DNA from: a virus
Taxonomy: Duplodnaviria; Heunggongvirae; Uroviricota; Caudoviricetes
DNA: 64,000 nucleotides
Reading direction: 5' to 3' (one strand)
IMG/VR virus record: IMGVR_UViG_2802428982_000005
Coordinates: 19,927 to 83,926 of that record
The stretch's first letter is position 1. Each line of letters opens with the position of its first letter. The position numbers and the translations under genes were made by a program. Under the pieces are notes generated by a model. The model had not been told where the DNA came from. It made no database searches and saw only the letters and a list, made by a program, of their open reading frames with translations. This document shows, piece after piece, positions 29,371-31,345 of the stretch.

Positions 29371-29873
29371 CGCTCGTCGCCGATGTATCGGTCGACGCTC
29401 ATGACTTTCCACTTCCCGCCAGTTCGGTACATGTTGTATCGAACCCGTGCCCCTGGAGAGAAATAGATATCCTCAGGCTTTGGATTCTTTTGGTCTTCGT
29501 ATTCCGTGTAGACGTACGCAACATAGACCAGATCCCCTCGCGCAAGGATGCTGAAATCGTGAATATGCATCGGGCCGTGCTTCTCAATTTGGTACGCCAT
29601 TTTGCGGACGTAGCCTGCCCTGGCTTGAGGATTAAGCTCTTCCTCTGCAAGTCCAGTTGACAAAGATTCGATTTGCTTAAGGTCGCCAGAGTTCAGGGCA
29701 TCAATATATTGCTCGACTACTGAGCGCACCTCTGCGTCATACTTGTCTGATTTGTCGCTGGGATGTTGCATGCACAGAACGTATGTCAGCAGAGAGGCAA
29801 CTGCAATAGTTGCGACCCAGGCCACCGCGACTGCAATTCCGCGTCGACTGACCCTGTCTCGAAGGGAAGTCAT
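29367..29873 (-). CDS. membrane-anchored NTF2/SnoaL-like domain protein (168 aa)
   Basis: ATG 29873..29871 overlaps the upstream stop (ATGA); TM helix IAVAVAWVATIAVASLLTYVLC; VVEQYIDALNSGDLKQIESL NTF2-like signature; lies in a ~50% GC island. Confidence 0.55.
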   Translation of the reverse strand: MTSLRDRVSRRGIAVAVAWVATIAVASLLTYVLCMQHPSDKSDKYDAEVRSVVEQYIDALNSGDLKQIESLSTGLAEEELNPQARAGYVRKMAYQIEKHGPMHIHDFSILARGDLVYVAYVYTEYEDQKNPKPEDIYFSPGARVRYNMYRTGGKWKVMSVDRYIGDER

Positions 29874-31345
29874 CACGCTCCTGTCACCACCCCGTTCGCG
29901 AGGCACTGCGTGGTCTTTGACCATGGCACCTGCTGCCAGAACCCTTGCACGAACTCTGTGGCCTGGAAGTTCTCCTTGAAGCGATTCGATTGACCACCTA
30001 TGGACCAGTTCAAGCTCTTGTCCATAGGAATCACGTCGCGGTCATCGTCTTCGGTGCCCATCCACGTAAGGTCTGGAATATGCCCAGGAGCTTTATCCTT
30101 GAATGCGTCGGCACCATATCTAAGTATCGCCCTGTCCTTATCGGCATCTTTGCGGCCCTGCATGCCCTTAGTTGAACGTTTAATCACCATTCCGCCCAAC
30201 TTTTCATTTCTTTTTATTAGATCATTGCCGCCATCAATGTATGCCTGTAGTCCCTTTTTGGTGAATTCCGATGGGTTGACTATATCCCTTGGCAGGCAGA
30301 TAGCCACCTTACCCATGCAGTTCGGCTTACCAACCTCGCATTTATCCTCAAAGTTCTCCATCCAGTCATCGATGAAGCCCTCGCATACTTGCTTGGCTGC
30401 GGCGTTAGGTATGGCTTTGCAGAGGGGATTCTGCGGCTGCCGATCAGGTGGGCAATCCCCACACTCCAGTGGCTCGACAGGTAAGCGGCCAGGAGAGCGC
30501 TCACCGTCGGGACCTAGAGATCCACCGCCTCCCTTGGGGAGCACGATCTCGGCCGCATCTCCGACCTGCTGAGCTACGTCAGCGACTTGTCCGGCGGTCT
30601 GGGTGACCTGGTCCATCTGCTGCGACATCGCCTGGCAGCGCTGCTGGCGCTGTTGGTCTCCCTGATCCTGCTGGGACTGGTCTTCCTGCTGCTGTTGTTG
30701 TTGCTCAGGCCGCTCGGGTTGCTGGGTCTGCGAGGGCGCCTGGCTCGGCTGCTGCTGCCCCTGCTGGGGCGACTGTTGACCTTGCTGGGGTGAATTCTGT
30801 TGCGGCACCTGATAATCAGGGTTCGGCTTGCCTGGCCCCTGCGTGTAACCGGGTGCGGTGGAGTAGTTAGGGGGCTGGGTGCCGTGCGCCGGTTGGTCCC
30901 AACCTTGTTGCGGCTGCTGTGCACCTTGCTGCCCGCCAGCTTGTTGCCCGGCCTGTGGCGCGCCGGAATTGTAAATTGAGATACCTGAGTTCTGATCTAG
31001 GGGCGGTAAGTTGTTCCCGCCCTGGTAGTCCGGCATGGACGGCGGTTGTCCTGGAGGCTGGAATTGAGAGCCACCCCCGTCAGTCATTCCACCAGTCGGT
31101 CCGGGCGGCCCAGTCGGCTCGGCTCCCACGGTGGCAAGGGTGGAGAACCCACTGCCTGGCGGGATGTGATCGTCGATAACTCTAGTGCCGCCAAAAGCGA
31201 CGGCAACGACAGCAACCACAATCAGCGCACGCCGTAGCCTTGCAGGTGCCTTCGGTTCCACCCGTCGAGCCCCGGCGGGGAATTGCAGGTCGCGGCACCA
31301 CATGGCGGTTGACTTGAGGTGCTCGTCGCGGTCTTGGTCCGACAT
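29873..31345 (-). CDS. membrane-anchored protein with long Gln/Pro-rich low-complexity linker and Cys-rich C-terminal domain (~490 aa)
   Basis: Likely ATG 31345 (ORF-track GTG 31354); TM ALIVVAVVAVAFGG; QQGQQSPQQGQQQPSQ...EQQQQQQEDQSQQDQ; C-terminal ~210 aa with 8 Cys encoded in the low-GC segment. Confidence 0.6.
   Translation of the reverse strand: MSDQDRDEHLKSTAMWCRDLQFPAGARRVEPKAPARLRRALIVVAVVAVAFGGTRVIDDHIPPGSGFSTLATVGAEPTGPPGPTGGMTDGGGSQFQPPGQPPSMPDYQGGNNLPPLDQNSGISIYNSGAPQAGQQAGGQQGAQQPQQGWDQPAHGTQPPNYSTAPGYTQGPGKPNPDYQVPQQNSPQQGQQSPQQGQQQPSQAPSQTQQPERPEQQQQQQEDQSQQDQGDQQRQQRCQAMSQQMDQVTQTAGQVADVAQQVGDAAEIVLPKGGGGSLGPDGERSPGRLPVEPLECGDCPPDRQPQNPLCKAIPNAAAKQVCEGFIDDWMENFEDKCEVGKPNCMGKVAICLPRDIVNPSEFTKKGLQAYIDGGNDLIKRNEKLGGMVIKRSTKGMQGRKDADKDRAILRYGADAFKDKAPGHIPDLTWMGTEDDDRDVIPMDKSLNWSIGGQSNRFKENFQATEFVQGFWQQVPWSKTTQCLANGVVTGA

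Follow-up and report, generated by a model that had tools for sequence, protein, structure and literature searches.

A three-gene cassette in a Mycobacterium abscessus-type prophage

The DNA analysed here is a stretch of 64,000 nucleotides (IMG/VR record IMGVR_UViG_2802428982_000005, positions 19,927 to 83,926; hereafter the window, whose coordinates are used throughout) that is almost wholly a Mycobacterium abscessus-type prophage. We investigated a cassette of three minus-strand genes within it, the first of which (the effector gene) encodes a predicted membrane-anchored protein whose N-terminal trunk recurs in many relatives joined to unrelated C-terminal modules, and the other two of which encode smaller proteins:

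29873..31354, minus strand: gene 1, the effector gene, 493 amino acids (aa) from a GTG start at 31354; an alternative in-frame ATG at 31345, three codons downstream, gives 490 aa
29367..29876, minus strand: gene 2, a transmembrane (TM)-anchored NTF2-like protein of the Rv0361 family, 169 aa from GTG or 168 aa from the adjacent ATG
28828..29370, minus strand: gene 3, a lipoprotein of the LppU/SCO3897 family, 180 aa, with the lipobox LFGC and 8 conserved Cys

The start of gene 2 (GTGATG) overlaps the effector stop (TGA), with GGAG just upstream, and the GTG start of gene 3 overlaps the TGA of gene 2; the three genes thus overlap start to stop. The open reading frame (ORF) of ~490 aa that an initial annotation of this DNA had placed at 29873-31345 is real and corresponds to the ATG start, and the GTG start is the one chosen in GenBank for gp63 of prophiGD43A-5 (98% identical, 'hypothetical protein'). 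That annotation did not include the third gene of the cassette, the LppU-like lipoprotein.

The region 28500-32256 shares 94% DNA identity with prophiGD43A-5 (cluster MabK) and 80% with prophi79-1 (58% of the query covered), and the DNA similarity of the cassette to prophiT48-1 and prophiT36-1 is confined to the trunk part. The three-gene order, together with a dip in guanine-plus-cytosine (GC) content, is repeated in prophiGD43A-5, prophi79-1, prophiT46-2 and prophiT48-1/T36-1, and GenBank records annotate the genes of interest here as 'hypothetical protein'. The cassette lies mid-prophage, just upstream of the packaging genes, and is flanked by hypothetical early genes. In PHROGs, phrog_30921 covers the effector over its full length and phrog_35557 covers the trunk alone, the function of both being unknown; the effector has no Pfam, NCBIfam or PADLOC match, and its full-length profile returned only low-complexity noise against PDB sequences.

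From its N-terminus, predicted to be cytoplasmic, the effector runs through a TM anchor, a trunk rich in Q, P and G and a junction to a Cys-rich, nuclease-like C-terminal domain (C-domain):

31187..31228, minus strand: TM signal-anchor helix ALIVVAVVAVAFGG (aa 43-56), read from the sequence, with a basic N-terminus and RLRR before it
30635..31183, minus strand: constant trunk (aa 58-240), with a Q-rich tract at its end (...QQRC(240))
30464..30634, minus strand: junction or pre-toxin linker (aa 241-297; …VLPKGGGGSLGPDGERSPGRLPVEPLE), from alignments and the junction listing
29876..30463, minus strand: variable C-domain (aa 298-493), 8 Cys, 52% GC
29876-30361, minus strand: modelled nuclease-like core (aa 332-493)
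29990..30085, minus strand: predicted active-site beta-beta-alpha core, with G424-H425-I-P427-D428..W431 on strand 1 and N449 and Q455 on the helix (LNWSIGGQ)

The TM segment and both peptide strings quoted in the initial annotation are present, and its count of 8 Cys in the last ~200 codons is exact for the last 196 residues (298, 301, 312, 324, 339, 346, 353 and 484). An N-in/C-out topology is predicted for the effector by the positive-inside rule. Q makes up 26%, P 16% and G 15% of the trunk (aa 58-240), which carries in order the motifs PGSGFS..ATV.A.PTGPPGPTGG, QFQPP, MPDYQGGNN.PP.DQNSGISIYN, QPAHGTQ.P.Y and YTQGPGKPNPDYQ, followed by the Q-rich tract.

A conserved trunk carries unrelated C-terminal modules

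By tblastn the trunk matched 24 phage records and the C-domain 5. Trunk conservation was judged against 8 trunk proteins with other C-termini, in an alignment that included the window protein, McProf gp50, prophi88-1 gp43, prophiGD12-2 gp80, prophiGD44-1 gp34, prophiCCUG48898T-1 gp29, prophiGD43A-3 gp31 and phiGD57-1 gp65. These proteins are nearly identical from the TM helix through the trunk motifs to the Cys of the Q-rich tract (...QQ.C), and past that Cys their sequences are unrelated. The families part directly after Cys240, and the linker …VLPKGGGGSLGPDGERSPGRLPVEPLE goes with the toxin type of the window. The Cys that closes the Q-rich tract is the conserved feature of the junction; a candidate universal junction motif, 'GGGG-R-S-P', was discarded when the regular expression matched only 1 of 40 loci.

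A genome scan covering one genome per species gave 42 trunk loci (L022-L063), found in Mycobacteroides or 'Mycobacterium sp.' isolates and in one Mycolicibacterium; they are mostly chromosomal and multicopy, with at least 7 in one genome. The position of the TM helix is kept in all trunk relatives, and 14 columns are invariant across 40 trunk proteins. The tails of the genome-scan proteins fall into about 25 clusters, and at least nine Pfam families were recognised in the tails of the 40 proteins, among them DUF6973 (3 proteins), Matrixin (2), Abhydrolase_8, GH19, an ADP-ribosyltransferase toxin, SLT, glycine zipper, cutinase and Met-zincin; some tails are glycine-rich and hydrophobic. No functional information on DUF6973 was found in the literature. 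Each trunk protein with an ADP-ribosyltransferase, peptidase or glycine-zipper module has its own downstream small gene. In prophiGD12-2, gp80, annotated as a metallopeptidase, ends in a metzincin (HEIGHALGLIHG), and the neighbouring gp79 is annotated 'metalloproteinase inhibitor'.

We are highly confident of this modular architecture, a conserved trunk with unrelated C-terminal modules. The initial annotation had anticipated a conserved N-terminal trunk with a swapped C-terminus, and had suggested that related prophages be searched for homologues that share the Q-rich trunk and differ in their C-termini; such homologues exist, as the tblastn matches, alignments and genome loci given above show. 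The two findings that it named as fatal to this idea were not made: the protein is not conserved only as a single unit, nor is the C-domain a structural protein of the phage (the effector as a structural or tail protein of the phage was considered and rejected, no match having been found).

Two further proteins, prophi68-1 gp40 and prophi102-2 gp39 (L012/L013, 2424-5378), are multi-TM proteins of 984 aa that hold trunk motifs internally (…SQFQPPQMP..MPDYQGGINQPPMDQNSSISIYN…), with a different long C-terminus and a 117-aa gene after it; because of these, the trunk is not confined to single-TM proteins.

The C-domain is a predicted nuclease domain shared with other scaffolds

A homologue search with the C-domain alone returned no relatives. 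An exhaustive HMMER search with it gave 38 representative relatives (E <= 1e-3), proteins of 131-653 aa, 31 of which have no more than about 20 residues after the domain, and a profile search gave at least 191 proteins with the C-domain, none with a Pfam domain on the toxin part. Some of the relatives sit on the mycobacterial trunk; others carry RHS repeats or DUF4280 (PAAR-like) by Pfam, and in others again, inspection of the sequence showed a HINT domain and the ends of Rhs cores. Two relatives (L015/L016) have WXG100_2 neighbour genes. Directly downstream of the C-domain gene, a SMI1_KNR4/SUKH gene was present in all 4 distant loci examined, and SUKH is the commonest immunity superfamily of polymorphic toxins (PMC3482391).

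Across 25 diverse members H425, P427, D428, W431, N449 and G453 are invariant, and G424 and Q455 nearly so. A single-sequence AlphaFold model of the C-domain was unusable (predicted local distance difference test score, pLDDT, 31). The AlphaFold2 (AF2) model from an alignment of the 25 sequences reached a pLDDT of 91 and a predicted template-modelling score (pTM) of 0.85, and has, in domain numbering, strands at 91-95 (G93-H94) and 109-113 and a helix at 115-125 (N118). A His-Me finger is defined here as a beta-beta-alpha core whose first strand bears the general base and whose helix opens with a metal-binding Asn; in the model His425 lies on the first strand of the beta-beta-alpha unit and Asn449 at the helix start, and the residues concerned are invariant. 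Foldseek of the model against PDB gave no significant match, and its best fold match is a secreted nuclease that degrades extracellular DNA.

In sequence the closest known family is Ntox15/Tde, DNase toxins with an HxxD motif. The best PDB sequence match (8fzz, E 0.45) aligned HNPD...DKRINSSIGSQ to GHvPD...DsslNasiGgQ. By hhalign the C-domain matched Ntox15 with 67% probability (E 5e-5) over 40 columns lying on the HxxD core, and 2 of the 25 family members match Pfam Ntox15 below threshold (best E 1.1e-3). As modelled, the C-domain appears to be an unclassified nuclease-type toxin domain of the His-Me finger group, with a distant link to Ntox15 and outside every curated family, and we have moderate confidence that it would act as a DNase. 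The actinobacterial branch of the family has extra conserved Cys pairs, which would fit a disulfide-stabilised extracytoplasmic protein.

The Ntox15 family consists of DNase toxins that depend on Mg, and in some lineages their immunity is of SUKH type; the Ntox15/Tde nucleases were reported to lack structural relatives. The C-domain resembles this family (PF15604; Agrobacterium Tde1, Bacteroidales Tde1, PDB 8FZZ; PMC4096383, PMC10470768) in its HxxD (H425-I-P-D428), followed about 20 residues on by D..(I/L)N.S(I/L)G.Q, and in the placing of the profile-profile match exactly on the HxxD core. It differs in that the match stays below every curated threshold, in that its partner in the window is NTF2-like rather than Tdi or SUKH, and in that Ntox15 is said to be alpha-helical for the most part; the fold matches listed did not include 8FZZ. 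Because the HxxD...INSSIGSQ core of Ntox15 aligns with the modelled beta-beta-alpha-metal core, there is a hint that the Ntox15/Tde nucleases may themselves derive from His-Me fingers. Also near, by the His-Me finger core of the model, are the secreted or membrane-bound Bacillus DNases NucB/NucA (ComI) with their inhibitor Nin/ComJ (PDB 6EJS; PMC5758888).

The NTF2-like gene follows the toxin type and the LppU-like gene follows the trunk

Gene 2 has an N-terminal TM helix, and its family matches are to DUF4440 (E 1.8e-3, below cutoff) and to NCBIfam Rv0361_Cterm (E 4.8e-8, 33.3 bits against a cutoff of 37); the TM/NTF2-like gene of 168 aa and ~50% GC described downstream of the effector in the initial annotation thus agrees with what we found (weak NTF2-like matches, 52.0% GC). 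In M. tuberculosis, Rv0361 was detected in the membrane fraction and at the cell surface (PMC2891697), and because of this location the NTF2 domain is likely to face outward. Beyond the surface localisation of Rv0361, no functional information on Rv0361, LppU or SCO3897 was found in the literature.

The NTF2-like gene is present in exactly those 5 phage records that carry the window-type C-domain and in exactly 3 of the 42 genome trunk loci, namely those with the C-domain (L023, L027 and L032); it thus accompanies the C-domain in 8 of 8 loci (phage records and genome scan) and is found at 0 of the 39 other genome trunk loci. Among more distant relatives of the toxin, L019/L020 have a direct NTF2-like homologue downstream (E 1e-23), and L021 carries, in the equivalent place, a gene with a weak SnoaL-like match (Pfam E 0.004), followed by a gene of the LppU family. 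Across the 8 cassettes the pairwise identities of C-domain and NTF2-like protein vary together (r = 0.956, range 37-99%), whereas trunk identity stays at 73-99% and correlates less closely with that of the C-domain (r = 0.60). Such co-variation beside a steadier trunk is the pattern to be expected of a toxin and the cognate partner that binds it, with trunk and tip separated by a recombination boundary. We hold with moderate confidence that the gene 2 product may serve in immunity.

The partner in prophiT48-1, gp45 (L003 3890-4438, minus strand; 'oxidoreductase', 139 aa), seems to have been annotated from a start too far downstream: its ORF starts right after the effector stop and encodes 182 aa, TM helix included, as in the other NTF2-like partners.

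Gene 3 matches NCBIfam lipo_LppU (E 2.5e-22) and the LppU/SCO3897 domain (E 1.8e-8). Trunk genes whose C-termini differ from that of the window are followed downstream by LppU-like homologues in 18 phage records and at 14 of the 42 genome loci, and because the lipoprotein is present whatever the tip, we regard it as a constant component associated with the trunk. A tentative fourth component is the next gene:

28388..28792, minus strand: 134-aa gene, function unknown, no Pfam or PADLOC match

Homologues of this gene also stand beside trunk genes with other C-termini (L007-L011, L029 and L045), where they lie divergently upstream.

Low GC content is a trait of the whole family

The effector gene has a GC content of 64.0% over its N-terminal 297 codons and 52.1% over its C-terminal 196, the downstream gene 52.0% and the window as a whole 64.6%; the shift inside the ORF that the initial annotation reported therefore stands, its figure of 65-70% for the 5' part being slightly high. 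Over segments of 600 nucleotides the GC fraction has a mean of 0.646 (standard deviation 0.030) and a minimum of 0.517, about 4 standard deviations under the mean, and the 11 lowest segments all begin at 29101-30101, the lowest-GC stretch of the 64 kb. The step within the gene falls mostly on codon positions 1 and 2 (GC at position 1, GC1, 0.75 to 0.54) and GC3 declines merely from 0.66 to 0.60; the GC1 drop results from the Q/P/G-rich amino acid composition of the trunk. The GC3 of both effector halves (0.66 and 0.60) and of the NTF2-like gene (0.57) is below the ~0.74-0.8 typical of the long ORFs of the window.

At 39 of 40 loci (L022-L063) the tail has a lower GC content than the trunk (trunk 64.3%, last 150 codons 56.4%, next 450 nucleotides 55.5%), so that low GC in the variable tip and the partner gene is a family-wide trait, and relatives with just 37-72% identity in the C-domain have the same low-GC block of toxin and NTF2-like gene. 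We therefore rejected the GC shift as proof of a recent transfer, and the 'recent' cassette replacement suggested in the initial annotation is not supported, because the drop is family-wide and in part an effect of amino acid composition.

Other features of the window

The 282-aa ORF two genes upstream of the cassette (32135-32983, minus strand) matches Pfam EACC1 (Effector Associated Constant Component 1) at E 0.099, which is probably noise, and a scan for promoters and terminators around the cassette gave nothing beyond shuffled expectation. The sole Rfam matches in the window are two adjacent genes for tRNA-Arg(ACG) and tRNA-Ser(GCT) at 62608-62820 on the minus strand; these tRNAs, at 62.6-62.8 kb, probably mark the host junction, on the bacterial side of the prophage. 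A 426-aa ORF at 60230-61510 may encode an integrase.

Comparison with known systems

The cassette resembles polymorphic toxin systems (Zhang et al., 2012; PMC3482391) in its constant N-terminal region, sharp demarcation and variable C-terminal toxin modules, in the small gene directly downstream, in a toxin domain common to Rhs, PAAR-like and HINT scaffolds, and in the lower GC content of the variable part; NTF2-fold and SUKH immunity proteins are listed there for HNH-fold Tox-NucA toxins. It is unlike them in that the trunk, a single TM anchor with a Q/P/G-rich region bearing its own conserved motifs, matches no described trafficking domain (WXG100, LXG, Rhs, PAAR, FHA or two-partner secretion), in that the candidate immunity protein is membrane-anchored and predicted to face outward, and in that an LppU-like lipoprotein is a constant third component. 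As a working analogy, the chromosomal relatives of the trunk recall contact-dependent inhibition (cdiB-cdiA-cdiI) in having an outer-membrane channel gene (MspA-like) directly upstream.

M. abscessus prophages are reported to carry WXG-100/ESX polymorphic toxin–immunity (PT-Imm) cassettes near attachment (att) sites (Dedrick et al., 2021, PMC8092301; Amarh et al., 2023, PMC9934374), and prophiGD43A-5 is listed among the prophages coding for related toxins. These cassettes share with ours the hosts and prophages, a common N-terminus, a variable C-terminal toxin and a downstream Imm gene; some of their Imm proteins are lipoproteins, and Ntox15-type C-termini occur there too. Their own features, as given there, are an N-terminal WXG-100 motif, an ESAT6-like partner gene, adjacency to attL/attR and predicted export by Esx-3/4. 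The effector of the window has none of these defining features and lies mid-genome, 5' of the packaging genes; that it might be the prophage's known WXG-100 polymorphic toxin was rejected on the missing WXG motif and the different location. A search by terms in the same two papers found no description of the trunk effector.

Proposed function and alternative readings

We judge it probable that this is a prophage-borne polymorphic effector–immunity cassette of a type new for the Mycobacterium abscessus/chelonae group (Mycobacteroides). Its three genes would be translationally coupled. The effector would be inserted by Sec, N-in/C-out, as a membrane-anchored protein with a Q/P/G trunk that extends to the conserved Cys and with an exchangeable C-terminal module, which in the window would be a disulfide-rich His-Me-finger (beta-beta-alpha-metal) nuclease-type toxin with His425, Asp428 (HxxD) and Asn449 as predicted catalytic residues. 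The same toxin family would be used in other phyla on Rhs, PAAR-like, HINT and WXG/LXG-context proteins, with a SUKH immunity gene next to it. Gene 2, an outward-facing membrane NTF2-like protein specific to the toxin type, would most likely bind and neutralise the toxin domain on the surface of the producer, and gene 3, linked to the trunk whatever the toxin, would probably be an accessory for export, anchoring or delivery. Lysogens might in this way antagonise mycobacteria in which the matching partner is missing, or discriminate them from kin.

Several observations weigh against this reading. The cassette stands among same-strand early genes 5' of the terminase and not at an att-proximal site of lysogenic conversion, and the window C-domain reaches no Pfam or NCBIfam threshold (no Pfam match at E <= 0.1). 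Neither a translocation domain nor a known secretion signal (WXG100, LXG, PAAR or Rhs, by Pfam/NCBIfam) was found in the effector. A DNase toxin normally requires a cytoplasmic immunity protein, and the predicted outward orientation of the NTF2-like protein would be unusual for protection from a DNase. Finally, in one relative (L014) the order is toxin, cytoplasmic SUKH gene and then a TM+Rv0361-like gene (NCBIfam 9.3e-10, 38.8 bits), and because the SUKH gene intervenes, the NTF2-like protein could be an accessory and not the sole, or any, immunity factor. Of the polymorphic toxin–immunity layout put forward in the initial annotation, the modularity of the trunk, the mobile toxin-type C-domain and the specificity of the partner hold up, and the SUKH gene of L014 complicates the role given to the partner. 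L014 itself is an actinobacterial phage-like contig (terminase, DNA methylase). In its region 2413-4799, which holds this gene order, the gene call for the toxin relative P0013 is too short; the full ORF codes for 431 aa, including a TM or signal sequence at the N-terminus and a linker rich in Pro.

That same gene order leads to a possible but clearly less probable reading, in which the architecture is polymorphic and the NTF2-like protein is a toxin-type-specific chaperone for export, folding or anchoring, protection coming from elsewhere or being needless as the Sec-exported toxin never folds in the cytoplasm of the producer. Distant family members with SUKH alone speak for it as well, as does an NTF2 domain predicted to lie outside the membrane when the target of a DNase is inside. 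However, no SUKH gene was found in the window cassette or in its 7 close relatives, and the place of gene 2 directly downstream, its overlap with the effector gene and its co-divergence with the C-domain (r = 0.956) are as expected of an immunity gene; moreover, NTF2-fold immunity is documented for HNH-fold toxins (PMC3482391).

We consider it unlikely that the effector is a surface-tethered DNase of the NucB/NucA kind, held on the trunk as a stalk and degrading extracellular DNA (biofilm matrix, neutrophil extracellular traps or incoming DNA), with the NTF2-like protein as its membrane-bound inhibitor or regulator. Prophage-encoded streptococcal DNases offer one analogy for such an enzyme. 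Another is the B. subtilis pair NucA (ComI) and Nin (ComJ), that is, Tox-ComI/Imm-ComJ (PMC3482391). All three cassette proteins are predicted to be extracytoplasmic (TM anchors, lipobox, 8+8 conserved Cys), the best fold match is the secreted nuclease noted above, no entry or translocation domain was detected by Pfam, and the partner would share the compartment of the enzyme, Rv0361 being surface-located (PMC2891697). What tells against a surface DNase is the company that the domain and the trunk keep: the domain family occurs on Rhs, PAAR-like and HINT scaffolds and beside SUKH genes, which is a signature of antibacterial toxins, and the same trunk bears an ADP-ribosyltransferase toxin, peptidases and glycine-zipper modules, each with a downstream small gene. 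The rapid co-divergence of toxin and partner (37-99%) against a trunk at 73-99% also fits an arms race better than housekeeping.

Quite improbable, in our view, is a phage module for lysis, envelope remodelling or superinfection exclusion, in which the trunk proteins would be envelope-anchored enzymes and that of the window a variant. Domains typical of lysins (SLT, GH19, cutinase or alpha/beta-hydrolase) do occur on some trunk proteins, the trunk gene of prophiGD12-2 adjoins lysis genes, and the place of the cassette just upstream of the packaging genes would be consistent with early or late lytic genes; but trunk loci are mostly chromosomal and multicopy, several of them lying behind MspA-like porin genes and not in phage lysis cassettes, no PADLOC match was found, and it is not obvious what part in lysis a nuclease domain with its own co-evolving partner would play. 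We give hardly any credence to the idea that the GC shift is a mere composition artefact of one vertically inherited gene with no exchange of modules, since, although the change does fall mainly on codon positions 1 and 2 (GC3 0.66 to 0.60), the trunk occurs with about 25 other C-termini and the C-domain on unrelated scaffolds, the DNA similarity to prophiT48-1/prophiT36-1 stops with the trunk, the NTF2-like gene is low in GC (GC3 0.57) without being Q/P/G-rich, and C-domain and NTF2-like protein co-vary against the trunk.

A possible delivery route and significance

At chromosomal trunk loci, two genes lie directly upstream with operon-like overlap, one for an MspA-like porin (Pfam MspA) and one for a secreted, Cys-rich protein of ~429 aa (no family match). 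The porin gene is found at 12 and the 429-aa gene at 13 of the 42 loci, and both are also present in L019/L020; the arrangement was seen at L019 1453-5465 and, at about 1600-4000, in L034, L041, L048, L049, L054, L058, L060 and L062. Both genes are absent from the window and from the phage loci. This linkage suggests that effectors may cross the mycomembrane by a dedicated route, which prophage cassettes might borrow. As a tentative proposal, which we hold possible rather than probable, the trunk would mark an unrecognised, Mycobacteroides-specific system of effector delivery: chromosomal operons of porin, 429-aa protein, effector, immunity protein and LppU-like lipoprotein would export through an MspA-type channel, prophage cassettes would plug into it and so arm their lysogens, and DQNSGISIYN and QPAHGTQ would be the recognition signal. 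In function, such a system would parallel two-partner secretion and contact-dependent inhibition.

As a pathogen M. abscessus is hard to treat, and its prophages are thought to drive strain competition and virulence; to our knowledge only ESX/WXG-100 polymorphic toxins have been described in these prophages so far. The elements that appear new here are the trunk, the unclassified toxin family, the membrane-anchored NTF2-type partner, the constant LppU-like lipoprotein and the porin linkage. They point to a second, Sec-anchored and much more diverse effector family, multicopy in Mycobacteroides genomes and with constant accessories of its own, whose tips include DNase-like, ADP-ribosyltransferase, peptidase, lysozyme-like, cutinase and glycine-zipper modules. 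The cassette also offers an unclassified family of predicted nuclease-toxin domains with a defined catalytic motif, and a candidate extracytoplasmic immunity protein of NTF2 type; and the genetic link of the trunk to MspA-like porins could bear on how mycobacteria carry toxins over the mycomembrane.

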